This document shows positions 50,769 to 64,000 of a stretch of DNA of 64,000 nt, one piece after another. The notes below the pieces were generated by a model, which saw only the letters and a list, made by a program, of their open reading frames with translations, was not told the origin of the DNA and ran no database searches. Origin of the DNA: Pseudomonadales bacterium. Its GTDB lineage: Bacteria; Pseudomonadota; Gammaproteobacteria; Pseudomonadales; UBA7239. A program made the position numbers and the translations under genes. How positions within the stretch are numbered: position 1 is the first letter of the stretch; every line of letters starts with the position of its first letter. The DNA is taken from NCBI GenBank assembly GCA_041395785.1, contig JAWKZZ010000005.1, positions 263,653-327,652 of the forward strand, read 5' to 3'.

Positions 50769-50844
50769 GGGTCGTTAGCTCAGTCGGTAGAGCAGTTGGC
50801 TTTTAACCAATTGGTCGATGGTTCGAATCCATCACGACCCACCA
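50769..50844 (+). tRNA. tRNA-Lys (anticodon UUU)
   Basis: GGGTCGTTAGCTCAGTCGGTAGAGCAGTTGGCTTTTAACCAATTGGTCGATGGTTCGAATCCATCACGACCCACCA forms a canonical cloverleaf. The anticodon loop is cuUUUaa and the CCA end is encoded. Confidence 0.95.
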
Positions 50845-50985: not shown

Positions 50986-52407
50986 TTACGCCAGCAAAGC
51001 CATCATTTTTTCTGTTCCGACAATATTGATCGCTCTTTTCAGGTTGTAAGCCGTGACAGCCAGTGCCATTTCCGTGCTGGCACCCTGCAATCCCCATAGC
51101 AGGAAGCGACCATTGCCCATGATCCACTGCTTGATGTTGCCAAAGGGATGCTCCACTGTCTGCCGTCGCCAGCGCATCATGTCTGGTCGCGCTTGCAGGC
51201 GTTTTGTCATGCGATCAAAAGCGGCTTCGTGCGCATGGCGGCTGATAAAGCGCTGCGCGGCACTGGTGCATTGCGCTTTGAGTGGACAACAGGAGCAGTC
51301 GCTGGTGCTCGCGGCATAAATCACAGAGCCCTTGTTCATTTGCTTGCGCGTCAGTGTGCATTGGTTCGGGCAGCGCCAGCTGTCGCTGTTGGCATCATAG
51401 GTGAACGCTTCTTTTTGAAAATGCTGTTGTTGCGACTGGTTGTTGACCGCGCGATGCGGTGGCACAAAGGCTTCAATTTGTTGATCGTCGCAGGCTTGGA
51501 ATTGCTCGCCGTTGGAATAACCGGCATCTGCCGTGACGGTGAGCGTGTCCTGCTGCAAAACCACTTTCGTAGCTTGCGCCACGGACAATAGTTGGCGACT
51601 GTCACAGGTATCTTGCGTGACATCGTGATGTACCACCAAACCGTGTTGTGTATCAACGGCTGTTTGTACATTGTAGGCAGTCATTTTGCCGTGGGCGTGG
51701 CGCATCATGCGTGCATCGGGTTCGGTGTGGATGTATTGCGTCAAACCGTGCTGCTGCAAAAAGGCGTGTTGCTCTGTCACGGCCTCCTGTTTGGCTTGCA
51801 GTTGTTGCAAGGCGGCGTGTACGGCAGAACGATCAACAACCGTGTCAGCCTCTGCTTTATCACTGTGATCCAGTTGGGTGAGATAGCTGGCAATCTGTTT
51901 ATCCAATGCTACCTGTTGTTGCGCCAAACGCGTTGCGCTCGAGTATTGCTTGCGCGAAGAAGCCGCTTGAAATTTGCTGCCATCAATGGCGATTAACTCA
52001 CCGGCAATCAGCCCTGCGTGCCGACAAAATTGTACAAAGCTGCGGCATACGGCTGTAAATGCTTTGCTATTCAAGCGTCGGAATTCGGCGATGGTTTTGA
52101 AATCCGGTGTCAGACGACTCAGTAGCCACATGACTTCCACATTGCGTTGGCACTCAGCTTCCAGTCGGCGTGATGAGCGCACACGGTGCAGATAGCCATA
52201 CAGATACAACTTCAGCATGTCGGCGGGATCATACGGCGGTCGCCCTGTGGCTTTAGCTACCGCTTTAGAAAAACCCAAGGTATCCAGCGCAAGACTATCA
52301 ACATAAGCGGCAATTACACGCACCGGATGATCGGCGGGAATCAGTTCGTCGAGCGAAACGGGAAACAAACTGCCTTGTGTAACCGCTTCTCCTTTGATGT
52401 AAGCCAT
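50986..52407 (-). CDS. IS1182-family transposase
   Basis: MAYIKGEAVTQGSLFPVSLDELIPADHPVRVIAAYVDSLALDTLGF...GRPPYDPADMLKLYLYGYLHRVRSSRRLE is the typical IS1182/IS5-superfamily N-terminus. The ATG at 52407 is preferred over 52425. Confidence 0.85.
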   Translation of the reverse strand: MAYIKGEAVTQGSLFPVSLDELIPADHPVRVIAAYVDSLALDTLGFSKAVAKATGRPPYDPADMLKLYLYGYLHRVRSSRRLEAECQRNVEVMWLLSRLTPDFKTIAEFRRLNSKAFTAVCRSFVQFCRHAGLIAGELIAIDGSKFQAASSRKQYSSATRLAQQQVALDKQIASYLTQLDHSDKAEADTVVDRSAVHAALQQLQAKQEAVTEQHAFLQQHGLTQYIHTEPDARMMRHAHGKMTAYNVQTAVDTQHGLVVHHDVTQDTCDSRQLLSVAQATKVVLQQDTLTVTADAGYSNGEQFQACDDQQIEAFVPPHRAVNNQSQQQHFQKEAFTYDANSDSWRCPNQCTLTRKQMNKGSVIYAASTSDCSCCPLKAQCTSAAQRFISRHAHEAAFDRMTKRLQARPDMMRWRRQTVEHPFGNIKQWIMGNGRFLLWGLQGASTEMALAVTAYNLKRAINIVGTEKMMALLA

Positions 52408-52456
52408 AAATAACAATGCCCGCATTTTTCAATGCGGGCATTGTCTCTGTTACCTG

Positions 52457-52521: not shown

Positions 52522-53748
52522 TCACGCGGGTTGTTTTTCCAGCTCTTGGCGCGGACCGAAGAACTCGAAATGCACTTGCGAGGCGGGAATACCCCACTGC
52601 ATCAAGCCGTGATACAGCGCGACCATGAACGGCTGTGGGCCGCAGAAGAAATAATCGGCATCGCGCCCAGAGAGCAGTGATTCCAAATATTCCGCAGTGA
52701 CAAAACCGTTGCTGGCATTGGCGGCACTGACGGGTGCTGCATCGCTGTAGCGGTAATACACTTTCAAGTTTTTGTGTTGTTGTGCCAGCGCATCGAAAGA
52801 AGCGCGGAACGCTTGCACTTCTGGATTTAATACCGCGTGCACCAACACAATTTTGCGCTCAGGGAATGCATCTAACGCAGCTAGCAGAATGCTGTTGATT
52901 GGCGTAATGCCGACACCAGCTGCCAGTAGCACGAGAGGGCGCGCATGTTTTTCGCTGACATCAAGGAAAAACTCGCCGCATGGTGGTGCGATTTCGAGCG
53001 TGCTGCCGACATCAATATTGTCGTGCAGTTGGTTGGAAACAAAACCAGCCGGTGTATTGGCGGCTGGTGGTACTTCGCGTTTTACGCTGATGCGGAAATA
53101 GTCCTGACCGGGTTTGTCGGAGAGGCTGTAATTGCGCATGGTGGTGGAGCCATTCGGTGTCGCCATGCGTACGGTGATGTACTGTCCCGGCTTGAAGGCA
53201 GGCAGCGGCGCACCATCGGTGTTTGCTAAATAGAAAGAGGTGATATTGCTGCTTTCTTTTTCTTTGCGAATGACGCGCAGCGATTTGAAGCCTTCCCATC
53301 CACCTGTTTTTTGCGCATTTTCTGCATAAATTTGTTTTTCACGGCCGATCAAAATATCAGCCAAAAAGCCGTAGGCTTCAGCCCAAGCGTTGATGATGTC
53401 GTCGGTGGCGCCTGCACCCAACACTTCGCGAATCGAAGCCAGCAGGTTTTCGCCGACAATTGGGTATTGCTCAGCTTTAATCATAAGAGATGCGTGTTTC
53501 TGTGCGATCAGTTCCACTGCGCCGCCCAGCACTTCCAAGTTATCAATATTCGCTGCATAAGCGGCAATGGCGCCAGCCAGTGCGCGCTGCTGATTGCCTG
53601 CGCCTTGGTGAGCTTGGTTGAAGAAAGGCGCCACTTCGGGGTTGTGGCTGAACATGCGTTTGTAAAAATGGCGGGTCAGTGTCTCGCCGTGTTCTTGCAG
53701 AATAGGGGCGGTCGATTTGACGATTTGGATGGTTTTTTCGCTGAGCAT
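52522..53748 (-). CDS. hmp: flavohaemoprotein (NO dioxygenase)
   Basis: N-terminal globin (MLSEKTIQIVKSTAPILQEHGETLTRHFYKRMFSHNPE...) plus an FAD/NAD reductase module (RNYSLS, GVGITP). Confidence 0.9.
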   Translation of the reverse strand: MLSEKTIQIVKSTAPILQEHGETLTRHFYKRMFSHNPEVAPFFNQAHQGAGNQQRALAGAIAAYAANIDNLEVLGGAVELIAQKHASLMIKAEQYPIVGENLLASIREVLGAGATDDIINAWAEAYGFLADILIGREKQIYAENAQKTGGWEGFKSLRVIRKEKESSNITSFYLANTDGAPLPAFKPGQYITVRMATPNGSTTMRNYSLSDKPGQDYFRISVKREVPPAANTPAGFVSNQLHDNIDVGSTLEIAPPCGEFFLDVSEKHARPLVLLAAGVGITPINSILLAALDAFPERKIVLVHAVLNPEVQAFRASFDALAQQHKNLKVYYRYSDAAPVSAANASNGFVTAEYLESLLSGRDADYFFCGPQPFMVALYHGLMQWGIPASQVHFEFFGPRQELEKQPA

Positions 53749-53761
53749 TTGGCAGGTCTCC

Positions 53762-53809
53762 ATAACATGTATGCAATTTACATGTTATGGATTGCACGGG
53801 AATAGTCAA
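53762..53809 (-). promoter_or_regulatory. candidate hmp promoter (TTGACT-16-TAACAT) overlapped by a 10-7-10 perfect palindrome (NsrR-like operator)
   Basis: The minus strand reads TTGACT(53809..53804)-16 nt-TAACAT(53787..53782). The palindrome is ATAACATGTA-tgcaatt-TACATGTTAT at 53762..53788. GGAG lies 9 nt before ATG 53748. Confidence 0.5.
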
Positions 53810-53818
53810 GCCGTTGGA

Positions 53819-54172
53819 TTACATATTTATCGCCACGCGATCGTTGTGGATAGCCGCCGGCCACACGCGCACTTGCAGGTCTGCCTCTAAACAGCGCCCT
53901 GTGGTGAGCGAAAAATGCTCTTTGTAGAGTGGAGAGGCGACCACCAGCTCGCCATTGATGTCGCCGACGATACCGCGCGCCAGCACATTGGCGCCGGCAG
54001 CAGGGCACCAATTGTCGAGCGCATAGACCTTGGGTTCTGCATCGGGCACATAGAACAGCGCGATTTGTACGCCGTTTACGCGGGCGCTGATGCCGGAATA
54101 AGCGACGAGGTCGTCGATGCTGCAGATATCCTGCCACTCGGCTTTGGGTTGCATGGCGATGACATTGCTCAT
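53819..54172 (-). CDS. nirD: nitrite reductase [NAD(P)H] small subunit
   Basis: 117-aa Rieske-fold-like small subunit. Its start overlaps the nirB stop. Confidence 0.85.
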   Translation of the reverse strand: MSNVIAMQPKAEWQDICSIDDLVAYSGISARVNGVQIALFYVPDAEPKVYALDNWCPAAGANVLARGIVGDINGELVVASPLYKEHFSLTTGRCLEADLQVRVWPAAIHNDRVAINM

Positions 54173-56706
54173 ACGGCTAGCTCCTCGGCGGCGATGCGGT
54201 TGGCGGATTTTTCAGCGGCAGTAGCGGGACGCGGTTGGCCGCGCTCGCTGACAAACACGATGTTCTCATCCGGCGTAGTGGGTTCGTTGACGAAAGAGCG
54301 GAAGCGCTTCAGTTTTTCCGGATCTTCGACGGTGGTTTTCCATTCGCACTGGTAAGTGGAGGCAATGTGCTCCATGCGCGCTTCCAGTTTGTTGGCGATG
54401 CCGAGAGAATCTTCAATGACGACGGCTTGCAGGTACTCAAGTCCACCTTCCAGATTTTCGCGCCACACCGATGTGCGTTGCAGGCGGTCGGCAGTTTCGA
54501 CATAAAACATCAACAAGCGGTCGATGTATCGAACCAGTGTTTCATCGTCGAGATCGGTGGCAAATAATTCGGCATGGCGCGGGCGCATGCCGCCGTTGCC
54601 ACACACATACAAGTTCCAACCTTTTTCAGTCGCGATCACACCGATGTCTTTGCTCTGTGCTTCGGCGCATTCGCGCGTGCAACCGGAAACGGCAAATTTT
54701 AATTTGTGCGGTGAGCGCAAACCTTTGTAGCGATTTTCTAATTGGATGGCCATGCCGACAGAATCTTGCACGCCGTAACGACACCAGGTGGAGCCGACAC
54801 AAGATTTCACGGTGCGTACCGATTTGCCATAGGCGTGACCGGTTTCAAAACCTGCATCAATTAATTCTTTCCAAATCAACGGCAGTTCGTGCACGCGCGC
54901 GCCGAACAAATCCACGCGCTGACCACCGGTGATTTTGGTGTAGAGATTGTATTTTTTGGCTACTTGTCCAACGGCGATTAAACCGTCTGGCGTGACTTCA
55001 CCGCCCGCCATGCGCGGCACTACAGAAAAAGTGCCGTCTTTTTGCATGTTGGCGAGAAAAGTGTCGTTGGTGTCTTGCAGCGGCACTAATGTGTTCGACA
55101 ACACATATTCATTGTTGAGCGAAGCGAGTATGGAGCCGATGGTGGGTTTGCAAATATCGCAGCCGTGACCTTTGCCGTGGAAACGCACCACTTCTTCGAA
55201 AGTGGTATAGCTGTTTACTTTGACGATATGAAATAACTCTTGGCGCGTGTGTGCAAAGTGTTCACAAATGGATTTGTTGACTTCCACGCCGCGTGCAGCG
55301 AGTTCGCTTTCCACCACATTTTTTAGCAGTGCAGCACAGCCGCCACAGCCTGAGCTGGCTTTGGTTTCGGCTTTGACATCGGCCAGTGAGCAGCAGCCAG
55401 CGGCGATACTGTCGCAGATATTTTGTTTGCTGACATTGAGGCAAGAGCAAATCGTCGCCGTCATTGGTAGAGCCGATGCGCCGAGTGTCGGTTTGTTTTC
55501 GCCGGCGGGTGCAATCAATGCCAGTGGGCTGCCGGGAATCGCAATCTCATTCAGCATGTATTGCAATAGCGTGTCGTAATCGCTGTTGTCGCCGATCAAT
55601 ACACCGCCCAACACTTTAGTGGCGTCTTCATTGACAACCACTTTTTTGTAGATGCCTTGGTGTTCATCGACAATGCGATAGCTTTTGCTACCCGGCGTGC
55701 GCGCGTGTGCATCGCCGATAGAGCCGACATCCACGCCGAGCAGTTTTAATTTGGTGCTCATATCTGCGCCGTTAAAACACAACTCGCCGCCTTGCAGTGC
55801 ATCGGCAGCTACTTTGGCCATTTGATAACCGGGCGCAACCAAACCGAATAGTTTTCCACCCCACAGTGCGCATTCGCCGATGGCAAAAATATTGGAGTCG
55901 CTGGTTTTGCAGTGGTAATCAATGACGATGCCGCCGCGCTCGCCAATTTTTAAGTCGGCCGCTTTAGCGAGTGCATCATCGGGACGCACGCCGGCAGAAA
56001 ACACAATGAGGTCGGTGTCGAGTGTGTCGCCGTCGGCAAACTGCATTTGCAACACGCCGGTTTTTTTCTGCTCGACAATTTTTACTGTGTTTTTGCTGAC
56101 ATGCGCATGAATGCCAAGTTCTTCAATTTTGTTGCGCAAAATAGCGCCGCCATCGGCATCGACTTGTGCGTCCATCAGTTGCGCAGAAAATTGCACCACA
56201 TGCGTATCCAAGCCGAGATTGCGCAGCGCATTGGCCGCTTCTAAACCCAACAAGCCACCGCCGACAACCACGCCGGTTTTTGCATTTTTTGCGGCTGCGC
56301 GAATGTCACCGAGATCATCAATGGTGCGATACACAAAACAGTGTTTGTGATCGTGTCCCGGCACCGGCGGCACAAACGGGTAAGAGCCAGTGGCGAGGAT
56401 CAATTTGTCGTAGGGAAAGTGGCGACCCAGTGCAGTGGTGATGGTTTTGTTGTCGCGATCAATCGAAGTAACCGCTTCGCCAAAAATGGCTTGAATGCCT
56501 GCTGCTTCATACGCCTCGCGTGTTGCCAGTGCGAGATCGGTGGGGCCTTTGCCGGCAAACACTTCGGAGAGATGCACGCGGTCGTAAGCAGGGCGCGGTT
56601 CAGCACCGATGACGGTGATGGCATAACGCTCGTCATGCATGATTTGTTCGACAAAGTGATGACCCACCATGCCGTTGCCCACTACCACGATTTTTTGTTT
56701 CTGCAT
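54169..56706 (-). CDS. nirB: nitrite reductase [NAD(P)H] large subunit
   Basis: KIVVVGNGMVGHHF (FAD/NAD), a BFD-like 2Fe-2S region (CSCLNVS...SSGCGGCA), and sirohaem/4Fe-4S motifs (SCVGSTWCRYG, VSGCTRECAEA). Confidence 0.95.
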   Translation of the reverse strand: MQKQKIVVVGNGMVGHHFVEQIMHDERYAITVIGAEPRPAYDRVHLSEVFAGKGPTDLALATREAYEAAGIQAIFGEAVTSIDRDNKTITTALGRHFPYDKLILATGSYPFVPPVPGHDHKHCFVYRTIDDLGDIRAAAKNAKTGVVVGGGLLGLEAANALRNLGLDTHVVQFSAQLMDAQVDADGGAILRNKIEELGIHAHVSKNTVKIVEQKKTGVLQMQFADGDTLDTDLIVFSAGVRPDDALAKAADLKIGERGGIVIDYHCKTSDSNIFAIGECALWGGKLFGLVAPGYQMAKVAADALQGGELCFNGADMSTKLKLLGVDVGSIGDAHARTPGSKSYRIVDEHQGIYKKVVVNEDATKVLGGVLIGDNSDYDTLLQYMLNEIAIPGSPLALIAPAGENKPTLGASALPMTATICSCLNVSKQNICDSIAAGCCSLADVKAETKASSGCGGCAALLKNVVESELAARGVEVNKSICEHFAHTRQELFHIVKVNSYTTFEEVVRFHGKGHGCDICKPTIGSILASLNNEYVLSNTLVPLQDTNDTFLANMQKDGTFSVVPRMAGGEVTPDGLIAVGQVAKKYNLYTKITGGQRVDLFGARVHELPLIWKELIDAGFETGHAYGKSVRTVKSCVGSTWCRYGVQDSVGMAIQLENRYKGLRSPHKLKFAVSGCTRECAEAQSKDIGVIATEKGWNLYVCGNGGMRPRHAELFATDLDDETLVRYIDRLLMFYVETADRLQRTSVWRENLEGGLEYLQAVVIEDSLGIANKLEARMEHIASTYQCEWKTTVEDPEKLKRFRSFVNEPTTPDENIVFVSERGQPRPATAAEKSANRIAAEELAV

Positions 56707-56745
56707 GGCCTACACCTCGCGCCAGATTCATTACGCGATATGCAT

Positions 56746-56761
56746 ATCAAGAACTGTGCCA
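56746..56761 (-). promoter_or_regulatory. candidate sigma-54 promoter for nirBD-hmp
   Basis: The minus strand reads TGGCAC-agttc-TTGAT. The -24 element is perfect and the -12 element deviates (GA instead of GC). It lies about 40 nt upstream of the nirB ATG. Confidence 0.45.
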
Positions 56762-56997
56762 GCGATGTTGTTAAGACGAGAAACCCTAATTTTTGGCGTC
56801 AATTAGCGAGTTTTGCGTTATGGCGGTGCGAGTTTTTTCTTTCTGCTGCAAAAGTGTGCAAAAAAAATAGTTTGAAGAAATTTCTGTGCTGCATATGTGG
56901 CGCGTTGTGGTGCGTGAGCTGTGTGTGTTGACTTTTTATGGTGCATAGCGCGGTTTTTGCGTGGAAATCGGCAATCTATTTAGCGTTTTGTGGCGCA

Positions 56998-57013
56998 TGG
57001 CACGGCGCTTGCT
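56998..57013 (+). promoter_or_regulatory. sigma-54 promoter for the transporter-kinase-molybdoenzyme operon
   Basis: TGGCAC-ggcgc-TTGCT matches the TGGCAC-N5-TTGCW consensus. It lies about 40 nt upstream of ATG 57052. Confidence 0.65.
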
Positions 57014-57051
57014 CTGTCACTGCTGTCATTGCTTATTGATGGAGTTGTGCC

Positions 57052-58257
57052 ATGCAGAAATCGTTCTGGCAGTCGGGCCATACGCCGACTTTGTTGTCAG
57101 CCTTTCTCTATTTCGATCTCAGTTTTATGGTTTGGTATGTGTTGGGGCCGCTCTCGGTGCAGATCGCGGCAGACCTATCACTGACGGCTTCACAGCGCGG
57201 CATGTTAGTTGCCACGCCGATTCTTTCCGGTGCGCTGCTGCGCATGGTGTTCGGTGTGTTGGTGGATCACCTAAAGCCGCGCATGGCGGGCATTATTGCC
57301 CAGCTCATTATGTTGGCAGCGCTCACGGTGGCGTGGCTGGCTGGTATCCATAGCTATACGCAGGCGCTGACACTCGGTTTATTCCTCGGTGTGGCCGGTG
57401 CAGCTTTTGCAGTGGCGCTGCCGCTGGCTTCGCGCTGGTATCCCCCTGAGCACCAAGGCAAAGCTTTGGGCATCGCCGGTGCGGGCAACTCAGGCACGGT
57501 ATTCGCTGCGCTATTTGCGCCGGCATTGGCAGCAGCTTTCGGTTGGACCAATGTGCTCGGCTGGGCGCTGTTGCCGCTATCGGTTGCCTTCATCGTGTAT
57601 CTGCTGTGCGCGAAAGACGCGCCGGAATGCCCGCCGCAGAAAAAATTTGAGGAATACCTAAAAGTACTGCAAGACAAAGACTCTTGGCTGTTCATGGGTT
57701 TTTACTGCGTGAGTTTTGGCGGTTTTGTCGGTTTGGCCGGCGCACTGCCCGGCTACTTCTATGACCAGTACGGTCTCTCGCCGATGATGGCGGGTTACTT
57801 CACTGCGGCCTGCGTGTTTGGCGGCAGCCTGATGCGCCCCATTGGCGGCTTGCTCGCTGATCGCTTTGGCGGTATTCGCGCGCTGACGCTGGTGTACACG
57901 CTGGTTGGCATTTTGATCATTTTGGTGGGCACAACACCGTCGCAGGCCTATGTCGCACTGGCGCTATTTGTACTGGCGATGTTGGTGTTGGGCGCGGGCA
58001 ATGGCTCGGTGTTTCAGTTGGTGCCGCAGCGTTTCAATAAAGAAATCGGCGTGATGACGGGTTTGATCGGCATGGCTGGCGGTATCGGTGGTTTCTTGCT
58101 GGCGGCTGGCCTCGGCTACAGCAAGTCGCTGACGGGTTCATATCAGTGGGGCCTGTGGCTGTACGCGGTGTTGGCGCTGAGCTCTTGGGCGGGCTTGTTG
58201 TCGGTGAAAACACGCTGGCGTACCACTTGGGGTGCGTTATCAGCGGCTCGGATTTGA
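57052..58257 (+). CDS. nitrate/nitrite transporter (MFS, NNP family; NarK/NasA type)
   Basis: The 401-aa product has 12 TM helices and Gly-rich NNP motifs (GIAGAGNSGTVFA, GMAGGIGGF). Confidence 0.85.
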   Translation: MQKSFWQSGHTPTLLSAFLYFDLSFMVWYVLGPLSVQIAADLSLTASQRGMLVATPILSGALLRMVFGVLVDHLKPRMAGIIAQLIMLAALTVAWLAGIHSYTQALTLGLFLGVAGAAFAVALPLASRWYPPEHQGKALGIAGAGNSGTVFAALFAPALAAAFGWTNVLGWALLPLSVAFIVYLLCAKDAPECPPQKKFEEYLKVLQDKDSWLFMGFYCVSFGGFVGLAGALPGYFYDQYGLSPMMAGYFTAACVFGGSLMRPIGGLLADRFGGIRALTLVYTLVGILIILVGTTPSQAYVALALFVLAMLVLGAGNGSVFQLVPQRFNKEIGVMTGLIGMAGGIGGFLLAAGLGYSKSLTGSYQWGLWLYAVLALSSWAGLLSVKTRWRTTWGALSAARI

Positions 58258-59948
58258 TGATGGATCGGTATCTGCGCGCAGGCGCTGATTCCTACGCCGG
58301 ACAAAAACCGCGCAACGAAGATGCGGTGGGCATTGCTACACCCTCTGCAGAGAGCTTTGCCGCGCGCGGGGCGGTGTTTGCGATAGCCGATGGCATCAGC
58401 GCTTGCGACCACGGCGATCGCGCCGCGCAGTACGCCGTGCGCGGCGTGTTGAATGACTACTACGCCACACCGGACACTTGGGCGCCGCCGATTGCCTTGG
58501 ATCGTGTGATCACCGCACAAAACCGCTGGCTGCGTTCACAGCGCAGCAATGGCAGTGACGCATCGCTGGCCACTACGCTGTCGCTGTTGGTGTTGATCGG
58601 TTCGCGTTATTGCATTGCACATGTGGGTGACACGCGTGTGTATCGCATGCGCGACAACAGCCTTGAATTGCTGACGACGGATCATGTTTGGAATCACCCG
58701 CAGATGTCGCATGTGCTGACGCGCGCACTGGGCCTCGATCAATCCGTGGCCGTGGATTACATCGAAGGCGATTGGCAGGCGGGCGACAGTTTTCTGCTGC
58801 TGTGCGACGGTGTGTGGGCCAGCGTGCCCGAGGCGGACATCTTAAAAACACTACACCTGTATGACGAGCCGAAAGCCTGTGCCTTGAAGTTGTGTGAACA
58901 GGCCTTGGACGCCGGCAGCCAAGACAATGTGTCGGCCTTGGTTGTGCGCTGCTTGGAAACGCCGCCCGATACCGTGCAGCAGCGTGTGGCGGCAGGGCGC
59001 ATGTTGTCGCCGCCGGCGAAGTTGAAATCGGGCAATGTGCTGGATGGGTTTGTTATCGAAGAACTGCTGCACGAATCGCGCGAAACGCTGGTGTATCGCG
59101 TGCGCCACCCGCAACACGATGGCGACTGGGTGTTAAAAACGCTGGCGCCGGCGGTGGCCGATGATGAATTGCGGCGCTTGGCGCTAGTCAGCGAAGAGTG
59201 GTTGATGGCGCGCATGCCGTCCAAACATTTCGTCGATGTATTGGTGTTGCCACAGGAGCAGCGCAGCGCGTTGTACTTGGTGCAACGCTTTCACACTGGC
59301 GCAACCTTGGCGCGGCGCTTGGCGAGCGGGCAACGATTTTCTGTCAACGAAGCCGCACAGCTCGCGCAGCAGTTATTGCGTGCGTTAGGCGCATTGCACC
59401 GCTTGCATGTGGTGCATCGCGATATCAAACCGGAAAACTTACATCTCGGTGCCGATGGCGTGCTGCGCATTCTCGATTTTGGTGTGGCATTACACGCCAA
59501 CAGCACTGAGCGCCAACTGACTACTGCGGGTACGCCTTCGTACATGGCGCCGGAGTTATTGCGCGGGGAAGATGCAACCACCACGACCGATATTTATGCG
59601 GCTGGCGTGACTTTGTATCGATTGTTGTCGCAGCAGTATCCCTACGGCGAGATTGAACCTTTTCAAAAGCCTGTGTTTGGCGACCCAACGCCTGTAACGC
59701 GCCATCGCCACGATGTGCCGCTGTGGTTGGACGATATCTTGTTGAAAGCCTGCGCGCGCGATGCGAAAGAGCGTTTTGAAACAGCGGAAGAAATGTTGCT
59801 GGCTTTGGAGCGCGGGGAAACGCACGGCTTGGTTGTGCGCCGTCAAAGTCCACTGCTGGAACGCAATCCTCTCGGTGTATGGCGCACGGTAGCGTTGTTA
59901 TCGCTGCTGGCGAATTTTTTTCTGCTGTACCTGTTGTTGGTGCAATAA
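58257..59948 (+). CDS. bifunctional PP2C-type phosphatase / Ser-Thr protein kinase with C-terminal TM helix
   Basis: PP2C motifs (NEDAVG, FAIADGIS, LLLCDGVW, GSQDNVSALVV). Kinase motifs (HRDIKPENL, ILDFGVA, SYMAPE). Hydrophobic tail WRTVALLSLLANFFLLYLLLV. The ATG overlaps the transporter stop (TGATG). Confidence 0.85.
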   Translation: MMDRYLRAGADSYAGQKPRNEDAVGIATPSAESFAARGAVFAIADGISACDHGDRAAQYAVRGVLNDYYATPDTWAPPIALDRVITAQNRWLRSQRSNGSDASLATTLSLLVLIGSRYCIAHVGDTRVYRMRDNSLELLTTDHVWNHPQMSHVLTRALGLDQSVAVDYIEGDWQAGDSFLLLCDGVWASVPEADILKTLHLYDEPKACALKLCEQALDAGSQDNVSALVVRCLETPPDTVQQRVAAGRMLSPPAKLKSGNVLDGFVIEELLHESRETLVYRVRHPQHDGDWVLKTLAPAVADDELRRLALVSEEWLMARMPSKHFVDVLVLPQEQRSALYLVQRFHTGATLARRLASGQRFSVNEAAQLAQQLLRALGALHRLHVVHRDIKPENLHLGADGVLRILDFGVALHANSTERQLTTAGTPSYMAPELLRGEDATTTTDIYAAGVTLYRLLSQQYPYGEIEPFQKPVFGDPTPVTRHRHDVPLWLDDILLKACARDAKERFETAEEMLLALERGETHGLVVRRQSPLLERNPLGVWRTVALLSLLANFFLLYLLLVQ

Positions 59949-59969
59949 TTTTTACTGGGGAGTAAGACC

Positions 59970-62171
59970 ATGTTGTTCGGTCGCGGCAAAAAAAATCCCA
60001 TCCATTTGCACGACAAAGGTGTGCAGGAGTGGAAATACGCCACTTGCGGTTATTGCTCCGTAGGCTGCTCAATTGAAATTGGCATCGATAAAAATGGCGT
60101 GCCAGTCACCACGCGCGGTGTGGGTGACGCGGATGTCAATCGCGGCAAACTGTGCATCAAAGGTTTAACCGAAGCGCAAATTTTTAAAGCCAGTGGGCGC
60201 GGCACCGATCCTTTAATTCGCAACAAAATTTTTGAGCCGTGGCAGACAGTAGACTGGGACACGGCGCTGGATAAAACCGCTGTCGAGTTTCAGCGCATTC
60301 AAGAGCAATACGGTCGCGATGCGGTGGCGATTGTTTCAACCGGACAAATTCTTACCGAGGAGTTTTACACGCTGGGAAAACTCGCACGCGGCGTGATCGG
60401 CACCAACAATTACGACGGCAATACCACACTGTGTATGGCATCGGCGGTGTCCGGCTACAAACGCTCGTTTGGCTCCGATGGCCCGCCAGGCTGCTACGGT
60501 GATTTTGAACACACCGGTTGTTTGCTGGCGTTTGGTTCCAACTTGCCAGAGCAGCATCCGATTATTTATTGGCGCTTAAAAGAAGCACTGGAAAAACGCA
60601 AATTTCCTGTGATTGTGGTGGACCCGCGCGTGACGATGTTCGCGCAGTTTGCCGATATTCATTTGCCGATCACGCCCGGTACAGACTTGGTGCTGCTGAA
60701 CAGTTTGGCGCATGTCATCATCAACGAAGGGCTGCACGATCAAGTCTATATCGATCGCTGCACCGTGGGTTTTGAAGAATTAAAAACACTGGTGCAAGCC
60801 TACGATCCCACAACGGCTGCAAAAATTTGCGGCATCGACGAAGACACGATTCGCTTAGTGGCGCGCACTTACGCGCAAGCCGGTGCGGCGATGAGTATCT
60901 GGACCATGGGCATCAACCAAAGCACACACGGTTCCGATGGCGTGAGTGCAATCAACAATTTAAATCTCATCACCGGCAATATCGGCAAACCCGGTGGCAC
61001 TTCGCTTTCAATTACTGGCCAGTGCAATGCGATGGGTACACGCGAGTGGTCGTCGTGCTCGGGTCTGCCCGGTTATCGCATGTTAGAAAAACAACAACAC
61101 CGCGAAGAGATTGCACAGTTTTGGAATGTGGATGAAAGTTTTTTTCCAGCAAAACGCGGCTTATCCGAAACCGATATTTTTCCTGCGATTGAGGCGGGGC
61201 AGATCAAGGCACTGTGGATCGTTGCCACCAACCCGATGACATCCATGCCCAACTCGCCGCGCATTCGCAAAACCATGGAGAAATTGGAATTGTGTGTGGT
61301 GCAAGATTCTTATGTCGATGTGGAGTGCACACAGTATGCGCATGTGTATCTTCCGGGCGCGGTGTGGGCAGAAAAAGAAGGCTGTTTTACTAACACCGAG
61401 CGGCGCGTGAATATCACACGCCCGATTGCGCCGCCTTTCGCCAACAGCAAACCCGATGCGTGGATTTTCTCGCAACTGGCCAAGCGCTGGGAGCAGGGGC
61501 GTCGTATGCGTTTCCCTGAAACATCCGAAGGCATTTTTGAGGAAATGAAGGCGCTGTCGAAATTTGGCAAAGGCTTGAATGGTCGTGAACGCATGCTGGA
61601 TATTTCTGGCATGAGTTATGACTTGATCGAACAATCGCGCGGTATTCAGTGGCCGATGCGCGAAGGCGATGAAGCCGGCAGCCCGCGTTTGTACATCGAC
61701 GGCGTGTTCCAATTTCCCGATGGCAAAGCGCGTTTATTGGCGCTGCCGTATATCGAAAACAATGAAATGCCGTGTAGTGAATTTCCGTTTTGGCTTAATT
61801 CCGGGCGCGTGGTGGAGCATTTCCACACGCGCACCAAAACCGGAAAAGTGGGCAACTGCAACAAATTCAGTCCGACGCCGTACATGGAAATCAACCCAGA
61901 TGCGGCGCACGAACTGGATGTGCAGCACATGGAGTATGTGCGCTTGGTGTCGCGCCGTGGCGATGCGGTGGTGATGGTGCAATTAACACAGCGCGTGCCA
62001 CACAATATGGTGTTTATTCCATTCCATTTTCACGATTGCGTGAATCGGTTGACGCTGGGTTTGCTCGATCCACACTCGCGTCAGCCGGCATTCAAACAAT
62101 GTTCTGTGCGCATTGAAAAAACCGATCAGCAAGAAGCGGCACGCTTGAATCTGCAAATGCGTAAGTTCTGA
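59970..62171 (+). CDS. molybdopterin (Mo-bisPGD) oxidoreductase, assimilatory nitrate reductase-like catalytic subunit, no Tat signal
   Basis: N-terminal CxxCxxxC...C 4Fe-4S motif (CGYCSVGCSI...KLCIKG) and molybdopterin oxidoreductase domains. It begins MLFGRGKKNPIH without an RR motif. It lies in a nas/nir context. Confidence 0.75.
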   Translation: MLFGRGKKNPIHLHDKGVQEWKYATCGYCSVGCSIEIGIDKNGVPVTTRGVGDADVNRGKLCIKGLTEAQIFKASGRGTDPLIRNKIFEPWQTVDWDTALDKTAVEFQRIQEQYGRDAVAIVSTGQILTEEFYTLGKLARGVIGTNNYDGNTTLCMASAVSGYKRSFGSDGPPGCYGDFEHTGCLLAFGSNLPEQHPIIYWRLKEALEKRKFPVIVVDPRVTMFAQFADIHLPITPGTDLVLLNSLAHVIINEGLHDQVYIDRCTVGFEELKTLVQAYDPTTAAKICGIDEDTIRLVARTYAQAGAAMSIWTMGINQSTHGSDGVSAINNLNLITGNIGKPGGTSLSITGQCNAMGTREWSSCSGLPGYRMLEKQQHREEIAQFWNVDESFFPAKRGLSETDIFPAIEAGQIKALWIVATNPMTSMPNSPRIRKTMEKLELCVVQDSYVDVECTQYAHVYLPGAVWAEKEGCFTNTERRVNITRPIAPPFANSKPDAWIFSQLAKRWEQGRRMRFPETSEGIFEEMKALSKFGKGLNGRERMLDISGMSYDLIEQSRGIQWPMREGDEAGSPRLYIDGVFQFPDGKARLLALPYIENNEMPCSEFPFWLNSGRVVEHFHTRTKTGKVGNCNKFSPTPYMEINPDAAHELDVQHMEYVRLVSRRGDAVVMVQLTQRVPHNMVFIPFHFHDCVNRLTLGLLDPHSRQPAFKQCSVRIEKTDQQEAARLNLQMRKF

Positions 62172-62179
62172 GGTGAGCC

Positions 62180-64000
62180 ATGAGTGTGTATGAATTTGTG
62201 CCAAGCGCAGACAGCGTAGCAAGCAAGAAGCAAGGTGGTTGTGGTAGCGGTAGTTGTGGCTGCAAGAGCCAAACTGTGCAAGACAATACTGTGGGTTATT
62301 CTGATTTTATCGCCAAAAACCGACAGCTTCGCTGTTTCCCGTGCGCAACAACGAGCCTTCGTATGCGTTACTGCATGATCCTGTGACACAAGACACTAAT
62401 CGCTATGGCAACCCGATTATTCTCGCGTCGGATCGCGGTGTCAGTCTAAATATCAACGGTGTGGATGAGATCAGTGCGAATCCCAATCGCACCAAGCAGC
62501 ACGCGTTTCACTTTACGGCAGACAACTGCATCGGTTGCCACGCTTGCGAAGCGGCGTGTAGTGAGAAAAATGATATGCCGCCGCATTTGAGTTTTCGCTC
62601 GGTCGGTTATGTAGAGGGCGGCACTTATCCCAATTACACGCGCATGAATATTTCCATGGCGTGCAACCACTGTGATGACCCTGTGTGTTTGAAAGGCTGC
62701 CCAACGCGCGCTTACACCAAGCACGCAGAATACGGTGCGGTAATTCAGGATCCAGACATTTGTTTTGGTTGCGGTTATTGCACTTGGGTGTGTCCGTACA
62801 ACGCGCCGCAGTTGGATCCGGTGAAAGGCCGCGTCGAAAAATGCAATATGTGTGTGGATCGTTTGGAAGTGGGATTAAAACCCGCTTGCGTATCGGCGTG
62901 TGTCGGTAACGCACTCAACTTCGGCGTGGTAGAAAATACACCGGACAATCGCGAGCAAATTGAGACGCGCATTCCTGGATTTCCTGATCCATCCATCACT
63001 AAACCGAATATTCGCTTTCAACAAACCAAATCCATGCCGCGTGAAGTGACGCGCACCGATTCTATGCCGCTCAAATACCGCAAGGATGATGCGGCTGGAT
63101 ACTATCGCCCGATGGTGGATCAAAAAGTGGGCGTGGCGCGTCACTGGAGCTTCAGCAAACTGTCGTCGCGTGAAAATCCGTTAGTGATTTTTACTCTGGC
63201 GGCGCAAGCGGCAGCGGGTGCTTTTGCCTTGTTATCGCTGGGCAAATGGTTTGCGGTGCCCGGTTTGCTGGAAGTAGCACAAGCGCCGGTAGCGGATGTG
63301 GTTACCTTGGTGTCGCTCGGTTTGATTGCGCTGGGCTTGTTGATGTCCACCATCCACTTGGGCAAACCGATGCGTTTTTATCGCGGCTTTAACAACCTGC
63401 GCCACTCGCCGGTGTCGCGTGAAGGCTTGGGCATCGTGCTGTTCATGGCGTTTGCCGGCTTCAGTTGGTTGGCGGCGCTACCGGCGAACGCGTGGGTGCA
63501 GATGCTGATCGGCGTGCTGCCTGCAGAGGTGTTGTCGCCATTGGCGCTGGCGCGTGAGGTGTTTGCAGGCTTGGGTATGCTGGCTTCAGCCGTGGCGCTG
63601 TACTACATGTACCGCTGCTATCGCATCAAGGCGCGTCCGTTTTGGGATCACAAACACACCGGCTTCACTTTTGTCGGAACCATTTTCAACTTAGGTAGCG
63701 TGGTGGTGGGTGTATTGGCTGTGCCGTATTTGTTGTGGATGGGGGTGAGTGTGTTGCCGCTGCTGTCGCTGCTCGGCGTGTTGATGGCTGTTGGTATGTT
63801 GGTGGAAGGTGTGGGTTTGTATTGGCATCGTCACGATTTGCACGCGGCTGAACACGAAGGTGCGGCATCGTTCTACATCCAGTGCACAACCTTCGGCAAA
63901 ACTTATATGGCGCGCAACGGCTTACTTGCTGTGAATGCGCTGTTGGCCTTGGCCTTGGCTTTGTTTGCCGGCGAGGGAGTGCTGTCGCTGCTGGGTTGGA
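62180..64000 (+). CDS. DmsB-type 4x[4Fe-4S] ferredoxin fused to a DmsC/YnfH-type membrane anchor; 3' end outside window; frame change between 62305 and 62386 as sequenced (alternative start GTG 62341)
   Basis: This gene is not in the ORF track. The frame of 62305 is open to 64000. Cys clusters: CIGCHACEAAC, CNHCDDPVCLKGCP, CFGCGYCTWVCP, CNMCVD...CVSAC. A polytopic domain follows with HLGKPMRFYRGFNNLRHSPVSREG. ATG 62180 with a GAGGTG RBS is in another frame. Confidence 0.7.

Follow-up and report, generated by a model that had tools for sequence, protein, structure and literature searches.

In the textbook view, bacteria assimilate nitrate with soluble enzymes whose electrons come from NAD(P)H, ferredoxin or flavodoxin. 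The characterised members of the Nas/NarB group (cyanobacterial NarB, Klebsiella NasA/NasC, Bacillus NasBC, Paracoccus NasC-NasG-NasB and Azotobacter NasB) are soluble proteins that receive electrons from ferredoxin or flavodoxin, or from NAD(P)H via a flavoprotein or Rieske partner. Here we describe a locus in a 64,000-nucleotide (nt) stretch of DNA from a Pseudomonadales bacterium (assembly GCA_041395785.1, contig JAWKZZ010000005.1, positions 263,653 to 327,652; hereafter the window), in which a nasA-like gene is followed by a gene for a DmsB-type ferredoxin fused to a DmsC-type membrane anchor. The locus shares with the characterised Nas/NarB systems the type of catalytic subunit (N-terminal [4Fe-4S] cluster, Cys molybdenum-ligand motif, predicted cytoplasmic location) and a position beside nirBD and nitrate transporter genes. 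However, its partner protein is membrane-anchored and carries four clusters, unlike those of the characterised enzymes. We consider it probable (roughly 0.6) that the fusion protein is the electron-transfer and membrane-anchor partner of a cytoplasmic NasA/NarB-type reductase, with the two probably acting as an electroneutral quinol:nitrate oxidoreductase for assimilation.

The described systems closest to this module are DmsB and DmsC by sequence, SoeABC and NarGHI by topology, and NarB and NasA by catalytic subunit. In Escherichia coli, DmsC is said, from work by Weiner and co-workers, to lie with both termini outside (N-out/C-out), placing its quinol site and partner subunits in the periplasm. 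The SoeABC sulfite:quinone oxidoreductase of Allochromatium and others faces the cytoplasm, has no twin-arginine translocation (Tat) signal, and combines a four-cluster protein with a haem-less anchor. Unlike the present fusion, Soe consists of three separate subunits with an NrfD/PsrC-type anchor and passes electrons from substrate to quinone, whereas quinol to substrate is proposed here; its catalytic subunit also belongs to a different clade of the dimethyl sulfoxide (DMSO) reductase family, and the likeness is one of topology only. NarGHI is likewise a membrane-bound quinol:nitrate oxidoreductase with a cytoplasmic active site and a NarK-type transporter alongside, but NarG belongs to a distant family, and NarI, a dihaem cytochrome b, oxidises its quinol on the periplasmic side of the membrane, which makes Nar electrogenic. 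We know of no haem ligands in the DmsC-type domain, and because its quinol site is predicted to be cytoplasmic, the fusion enzyme should be electroneutral, unlike NarGHI. Poly-[4Fe-4S] ferredoxins also serve catalytic subunits of the Nap/Nas/FdhF clade in NapGH, which has a membrane partner that oxidises quinol, and in FdhF-HycB. However, NapG resides in the periplasm, and NapH, a membrane Fe-S protein with four helices, is unrelated, while HycB connects FdhF to a hydrogenase (formate hydrogenlyase) and not to quinol.

In profile searches, one window polypeptide matched both Fer4_11 (82.5 bits, cutoff 26.2) and the DmsC family PF04976 (58.9 bits, cutoff 22.3). This bears out an earlier note on the window, made from its letters and a list of open reading frames (ORFs), which had described a DmsB-type ferredoxin fused to a DmsC-type anchor. 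Intact relatives of the protein have 613–673 amino acids (aa), and PF04976 is present in all full-length ones; the window protein passes the cutoff though it is incomplete at its C-terminus. Four Cys clusters of the DmsB/PsrB/NrfC pattern, as the earlier note had read them, were located in the translation of the frame of position 62305 (CIGCHACEAAC, 62527–62559; CNHCDDPVCLKGC, 62662–62700; CFGCGYCTWVC, 62761–62793; CNMC...CVSAC, 62842–62901). All 16 cluster Cys residues were invariant among 40 homologues, the signature of a four-cluster protein (FCP). In the 565-aa translation of this frame, Fer4_11 spans residues 117–208 and TIGR02951 (DMSO_dmsB) residues 65–211; the latter scored 156.7 bits, under its equivalog cutoff of 214.1, and was still the best NCBIfam four-cluster model. 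The Fe-S domain aligned with nearly the whole length of E. coli DmsB (38% identity over 182 aa, E 3e-44), with HycB-type proteins among its PDB sequence matches. The C-terminal ~330 residues aligned end to end with E. coli DmsC (27–32% identity). The anchor matched the Pfam DmsC model and not NrfD, and no Soe model was present among the best 25 NCBIfam matches per protein. In an AlphaFold2 model of a full-length relative (40-sequence alignment), the membrane domain was predicted with a per-residue confidence (pLDDT) above 90. The best Foldseek matches of the model in the PDB were the NrfD-type quinone subunits ActC and PsrC, weak matches (E about 1e-3) that indicate fold class only.

The module thus resembles E. 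coli DmsABC in both of its domains, in its eight helices, in the equivalents of DmsC His65 and Glu87, and in a catalytic partner with molybdenum bis-pyranopterin guanine dinucleotide (Mo-bisPGD). However, B and C are here in one chain with additional family-specific segments: an N-terminal extension of about 60–110 residues (invariant positions begin at Arg61, numbered as in P0001, the closest full-length homologue, with 672 aa and 92% identity over 565 aa), a conserved linker of ~80 aa, and a conserved C-terminal tail (PTTMPGAFFWKNKAFEQHARDIGLA...). The predicted orientation is also the reverse, the Fe-S domain and the quinol loop both facing the cytoplasm, and the partner is a Nas/NarB-type enzyme without a Tat signal, in contrast to the Tat-exported DmsA. 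The DmsB score lies under the equivalog cutoff and the predicted orientation differs from that of DmsC; we regard the fusion as a DmsBC-derived module and not as a DMSO reductase subunit. A Cys-rich insert of ~40 residues (KKQGGCGSGSCGCKSQ, window positions 62225–62275 in the frame of 62180) lies within the N-terminal extension; it also occurs in P0001, P0002 and L095. The insert is limited to the close lineage of the window (672–673-aa forms) and missing from 633-aa relatives, and it could be either metal-binding or of low complexity.

Membrane topology was predicted from the positive-inside rule and a simple hydropathy scan, which gave eight transmembrane (TM) segments in P0001. Among the 40 homologues, loops on the side of the Fe-S domain held 18–24 Lys and Arg residues (mean 21) and those on the opposite side 0–3 (mean 0.5); E. 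coli DmsC has 4 and 4, with no side bias. Neither a signal peptide nor a Tat motif was found in the fusion protein, and a Tat-like motif was present in 0 of 73 NasA-like partner ORFs. Because of this charge bias and the lack of an export signal in either protein, we predict a cytoplasmic location for the Fe-S domain, the His/Glu loop and the C-terminal tail and an N-in/C-in anchor, in agreement with the cytoplasm-facing complex that the earlier note had proposed. The N-out/C-out arrangement of DmsC is accordingly not the one predicted from the charges, and the N-terminus of the anchor is contiguous with a signal-less Fe-S domain. Even when inverted in this way, the anchor would have its quinol site and the Fe-S clusters on one side of the membrane.

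The loop HLGKPMRFYRGFNNLRHSPVSRE, whose resemblance to the conserved DmsC/YnfH loop had been seen before, was located within the hydrophobic domain and holds the equivalents of DmsC His65 and Glu87. Both were invariant in alignments with E. coli DmsC and with fused homologues down to 37% identity. According to PMC13059093, which cites Geijer and Weiner (2004), His65 (H65R) and Glu87 are essential or important in DmsC for the binding and oxidation of menaquinol. The DmsC-like domain could instead be a mere tether, holding NasA for example near NarK, while a soluble donor (ferredoxin, flavodoxin or NirB) feeds the Fe-S domain. Characterised short NarB-type enzymes do use ferredoxin or flavodoxin, the JGI name of the partner is 'ferredoxin-nitrate reductase', and quinol oxidation by the fusion is itself a prediction from sequence. 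However, a tether would have no need of two quinol residues kept invariant at such divergence within a strongly conserved loop, nor of eight helices, which go far beyond what tethering requires, and we consider this arrangement decidedly unlikely.

The gene upstream of the fusion encodes a 733-aa protein with the Pfam domains Molybdop_Fe4S4 (N-terminal), Molybdopterin and Molydop_binding. It begins MLFGRGKKNPIH and the Tat leader of E. coli NapA is not there, as the earlier note had observed in calling it a signal-less, cytoplasmic, nitrate-reductase-like molybdoenzyme. Its molybdenum-ligand motif TTLCMASAVSGYK aligns with HCMASAV (Cys-Met) of E. coli NapA and not with the selenocysteine (Sec)-His of FdhF, and CMASAV was found in 65 of the 73 partner ORFs. 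As far as this motif goes, the protein falls within the nitrate reductases and not outside them, the latter being a placement that the earlier note had said would undo its interpretation. Close homologues are named 'nitrate reductase', 'ferredoxin-nitrate reductase' (JGI) or 'assimilatory nitrate reductase catalytic subunit'. Together, the Cys ligand motif, the lack of a Tat signal, and the clustered nitrite reductase and nitrate transporter genes are the features of the Nas/NarB group, and they support a predicted cytoplasmic enzyme of the NasA/NarB type. With a NasA-like gene and an FCP-anchor fusion 8 nt on, the pair encodes the parts of the alpha-beta-gamma architecture of complex iron-sulfur molybdoenzymes (CISM).

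Profile scores for the 733-aa protein were less specific. Its top NCBIfam matches were Fdh-alpha, NasC, NasA and NapA, all under their equivalog cutoffs: Fdh-alpha scored best (557.9 bits, cutoff 666), while NasC (NF047855, 493 bits, cutoff 1100) and NasA_Halo (NF041323, 453 bits, cutoff 1000) are models of other subgroups, and TIGR01580 (NarG) gave 30.8 bits. These scores would suit an enzyme acting on another substrate (e.g. chlorate, selenate or formate) and linked to nitrate genes incidentally. We judge this very improbable given that the ligand motif is the Cys-Met of NapA/Nas and not the Sec/Cys-His of formate dehydrogenases, that the nearest solved relative is Desulfovibrio NapA, and that linkage to nirBD, NarK and cobA recurs across many lineages and gene orders. 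The window enzyme is a short NarB-like form without the C-terminal [2Fe-2S] domain. NirD was considered as a NasG-like Rieske donor and set aside, having neither Cys-x-His nor Cys-x-x-His ligands. With the [2Fe-2S] domain missing from NasA and Rieske ligands missing from NirD, no electron donor other than the fusion is obvious among the genes at the locus.

We assessed how widely the fusion occurs and which genes accompany it. Homologues form thousands of protein clusters, with matches in at least 583 GTDB species genomes. Gammaproteobacterial carriers include Halieaceae, Spongiibacteraceae, Cellvibrionaceae/Teredinibacter, Porticoccus, Oleiphilus, Ketobacter, Alteromonadaceae, Colwellia, Pseudoalteromonas, Shewanella hanedai and Thiotrichaceae, and carriers among Burkholderiales include Polaromonas, Ramlibacter, Rhodoferax, Methylibium and Roseateles. 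The earlier note had called the implied electron supply unusual; the module itself is no peculiarity of this one locus. Neighbourhoods were counted over 80 retained species loci. A homologue of the window molybdoenzyme (68–94% identity) lay immediately upstream of the fusion in 79 of them, and a nirB homologue lay within 10 kb in 44. The nearest genome, a Cellvibrionales metagenome-assembled genome (GCA_016713115.1, 87.7% nt identity), has the gene order of the window and an intact 672-aa fusion. In Teredinibacter the order is cobA-nirB-nirD-nasA-fusion, and in Parahaliea it is nirB-nirD-nasA-fusion with overlapping stop and start codons and with transporter, kinase and NMT1_2 (NrtA-like) genes adjoining. 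Distant fusions (37–49% identity), which are without the N-terminal extension, stand beside genes for a molybdoenzyme, NirB, a NIR_SIR sirohaem nitrite reductase, NarK or amtB-glnK. Because the linkage persists at such divergence and through a changed gene order, the genes are likely to work together as a unit devoted to assimilating nitrogen. The tie to nitrate-assimilation genes suggested by the earlier note therefore extends to distant homologues, and the survey did not find the Fe-S/anchor gene unlinked from nitrate genes, which the note had named as evidence to the contrary.

Several loci in the survey showed further features. In one case (L093:6616-11921 and L094), the order is NarK-fusion-molybdoenzyme-amtB-glnK, so that the fusion (37% identity, 559 aa) lies upstream of the molybdoenzyme in inverted order; the surroundings include nirB and moaA/moaC as well as a NirD-like gene that is truly of the Rieske type. 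In 24 of the 80 loci (e.g. L041:11909-12298, L048, L055, L057, L066 and L076), mainly from Alteromonadales, Oleiphilaceae and Burkholderiales, the gene immediately following the fusion encodes a conserved ~129-aa protein that matches no Pfam family; in most of these it is on the same strand. The protein may serve the module as an accessory factor or chaperone. The lineage of the window is without it, the next gene there being a convergent one for a methyl-accepting chemotaxis protein.

The same complex might instead be chiefly dissimilatory or redox-balancing, a cytoplasm-facing, non-electrogenic quinol sink comparable in this respect to periplasmic Nap, with assimilation as a by-product. Outside this module, a quinol anchor in a CISM-like arrangement typically marks a respiratory enzyme, a flavohaemoglobin gene lies beside nirBD in the window and in L001, and NirBD can also serve dissimilatory nitrite ammonification. 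Set against this, the neighbouring genes are consistently assimilatory (cobA, nirBD, NarK, amtB-glnK and molybdenum cofactor genes), respiratory accessory genes were not seen in the loci examined, and the catalytic subunit is one of the Nas/NarB group, in line with its database names. We consider a mainly dissimilatory role unlikely.

For the assimilatory quinol:nitrate oxidoreductase that we favour, the following path can be proposed. Quinol would be oxidised at the His/Glu loop site on the cytoplasmic face of the DmsC-like domain, and electrons would pass through the four [4Fe-4S] clusters to the [4Fe-4S] cluster of NasA (FS0) and on to Mo-bisPGD. Nitrate would be imported by NarK and reduced by NasA to nitrite, which NirBD would take to ammonium. 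The step would be electroneutral because protons released from quinol and those consumed in nitrate reduction are on the same side of the membrane. A plausible benefit is that electrons from NADH could go via a proton-pumping NADH dehydrogenase first, whereas a soluble NADH-dependent Nas would, we infer, dissipate their ~0.7 V. That NasA and the fusion form an unrecognised, widespread class of membrane-bound, cytoplasm-facing, quinol-dependent assimilatory nitrate reductases is a broader proposition on which we are evenly divided; under it, large groups of marine Gammaproteobacteria (Halieaceae, Spongiibacteraceae, Cellvibrionaceae, Alteromonadales, Shewanella and Colwellia) and freshwater or soil Burkholderiales would assimilate nitrate mainly by this route.

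Several points weigh against the proposed complex. The contact between NasA and the fusion, the use of quinol as donor and nitrate as substrate, and the assimilatory role are predictions from genes and their neighbourhoods, and the orientation of the anchor is predicted from residue charges and hydropathy. The structural model is poor in the Fe-S domain (pLDDT below 50), which leaves docking of that domain on the quinol-loop face, and of NasA on the Fe-S domain, hypothetical. DmsB-type clusters are of low potential, and these aerobic carriers probably use ubiquinone, while the site in DmsC is one for menaquinol. One of the 80 loci (L054) has a fusion without an adjacent molybdoenzyme, which we treat as an exception and not as a refutation. 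The fusion there (L054:4756-6789) is preceded by a short-chain dehydrogenase/reductase gene and followed by genes for a Glycos_trans_3N protein and a TP_methylase (cobA). In the window itself, moreover, the fusion gene is frameshifted and may hence be inactive.

The frame of 62305 on the + strand is free of stop codons for 565 codons and reaches the window end, as had been stated earlier; at 53% GC, the chance of such an open frame is ~(61/64)^565, or ~1e-12. The last ~62 codons of the gene (TM8 and the conserved C-terminal tail) fall outside the window. Its beginning is less simple. Before the first Cys cluster, the frame of 62305 lacks an ATG as well as any GTG or TTG preceded by a Shine-Dalgarno-like sequence; the sole candidate start, GTG 62341, is without one, and was set aside as the native start and retained only as a possible rescue start. 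The native start is an ATG at 62180, 8 nt past the nasA stop codon and with GAGGTGA just before it, collinear with the N-termini of P0001 and P0002 and with the DNA of L001 and L002. The earlier note had begun its element at 62180 and read it in the frame of 62305. The ATG at 62180 lies in another frame, whose translation (MSVYEFVPSADSVASKKQGGCGSGSCGCKSQTVQDNTVGYSDFIAK...) closes at about 62386; the two frames are joined at a run of A residues from which one is deleted. P0001 reads unbroken across the junction (...GYADFIAKKPTASLFPV...), and all six nearest relatives (L001, L002, L003, L004, L095 and L096) have A6 where the window has A5. The gene is thus missing from the ORF list because it runs off the window end, as had been presumed, and also because a 1-nt frameshift splits it.

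The A5 deletion stems either from an error in the assembly or from a recent lesion specific to this strain. A programmed -1 frameshift was set aside, as C-AAA-AAC is a poor slippery heptamer and A6 keeps each of the six nearest relatives in frame, as was transcriptional slippage, for which the run is too short. A generally low-quality assembly would have shown further frameshifts, none of which was found in the 11.5 kb aligned to L001. If real, the deletion parts the native start from the gene body and makes the module non-working in this strain. The six relatives with A6 fit this, as does the restriction of candidate starts past the frameshift to GTG 62341. However, the 565 downstream codons are undamaged and 92% identical to those of an intact relative, and the deletion is the sole uncompensated indel in the aligned 11.5 kb and falls in a homopolymer, as is typical of sequencing or assembly errors. 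GTG 62341 also precedes all invariant residues, of which Arg61 is the first, and its equivalent is the annotated start of Teredinibacter proteins. A pseudogene is possible in this genome but in our view doubtful. Given the lone indel and the undamaged downstream codons, an assembly or sequencing error appears somewhat more likely than a real lesion.

Full-text literature searches returned no description of a Nas enzyme with such a partner, subscription-only literature being outside their reach, and the gene neighbourhoods are not described in the Alteromonas nasA knockout paper or in the marine nasA diversity paper. In the DMSO reductase family phylogeny of Wells et al. (2020), no member of the Fdh/Nas/Aio/Nap clade has canonical four-cluster or anchor subunits. 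The module therefore appears to be widespread and unnamed, and is known here from its genes; an earlier description in literature outside the searches is possible. Database names for the fusion are generic or wrong ('DMSO reductase iron-sulfur subunit' in JGI; 'DmsC/YnfH anchor'), and one family member, P0106 from Halioglobus japonicus, is called 'aspartate carbamoyltransferase' in NCBI/nr, an evident misannotation. Should the proposed function hold, nitrate assimilation would take the electrons for its first step from the respiratory quinol pool and not from NAD(P)H or ferredoxin, so that it would depend on respiratory-chain state and NADH electrons could drive proton pumping first. Many of the nasA-bearing heterotrophs that compete with phytoplankton for nitrate would then pay for its reduction with quinol, and counts of dmsB and dmsC in oxic-water metagenomes may in part represent nitrate-assimilation genes. 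The anchor would also be a natural example of a DmsC-type protein in inverted orientation, of interest for membrane-protein evolution. Cultivable hosts are found among the carriers (Teredinibacter, Parahaliea, Haliea, Shewanella hanedai and Polaromonas).

Table 1. Features of the nitrate-assimilation locus and its surroundings, in window coordinates.
Feature	Position	Strand	Basis
tRNA gene	50769–50841		Rfam scan
Divergent nirB (54169–56706) and nirD (53819–54172), sirohaem NAD(P)H nitrite reductase	53819–56706	-	ORFs, L001 genes
NarK-family nitrate/nitrite major facilitator superfamily (MFS) transporter, first gene of the same-strand cluster	57052–58257	+	TIGR00886, 293 bits; MFS_1
PP2C phosphatase fused to Ser/Thr kinase, with C-terminal hydrophobic tail	58257–59948	+	Pfam PP2C_2, Pkinase
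NasA/NarB-type molybdopterin nitrate reductase catalytic subunit (predicted), 733 aa, no Tat signal	59970–62171	+	Pfam, NCBIfam, motif
True 5' end of fusion gene: N-terminal 45 residues, including lineage-specific Cys-rich insert GGCGSGSCGCKS	62180–62314	+	Translation of that frame
A5 homopolymer, 1-nt deletion relative to A6	62313–62317	+	DNA alignment with six nearest relatives
Remainder of fusion gene, frame of 62305	62318–64000	+	Open to window end; 92% identical to P0001
DmsB-like four-cluster ferredoxin domain	62497–62937	+	16 Cys in four motifs; Fer4_11, TIGR02951
DmsC-like membrane anchor domain, 7 of 8 TM helices in window	63172–64000	+	PF04976, hydropathy, alignment
Predicted cytoplasmic quinol-site loop HLGKPMRFYRGFNNLRHSPVSRE	63355–63423	+	DmsC His65 and Glu87 equivalents; 5 Lys/Arg

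The remaining genes around the module are listed in Table 1; nirB, nirD and the flavohaemoglobin gene were identified from their ORFs and the Pfam annotation of 94–98% identical genes in L001. The PP2C/kinase gene also lies next to the transporter gene in L001, L095 and L087, and a PP2C-Ser/Thr kinase fusion beside a nitrate transporter was found in 28 of the 80 species loci (e.g. L087:1042-2808), a linkage that suggests phosphorylation-based control of nitrate uptake or assimilation. Across the whole window, Rfam models identified one tRNA only, with no leader or riboswitch ahead of the cluster, and a promoter and terminator scan of 56600–62400 gave counts comparable to those of shuffled sequence.

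Directly beside nirD lies the gene for the flavohaemoglobin Hmp (52522–53763, - strand), with globin, FAD and NAD domains as annotated in its 98% identical L001 counterpart. A pairing of nitrate assimilation with nitric oxide detoxification is put forward in PMC4724949, and the hmp-nirD adjacency fits that idea. After the tRNA gene, a 479-aa ORF (50986–52425, - strand) encodes a putative insertion sequence-type transposase, judged from the translation alone. The tRNA and putative transposase genes lie between queC and the hmp-nirDB-nas cluster, and this stretch may be the insertion point or a mobility boundary of a nitrate island.

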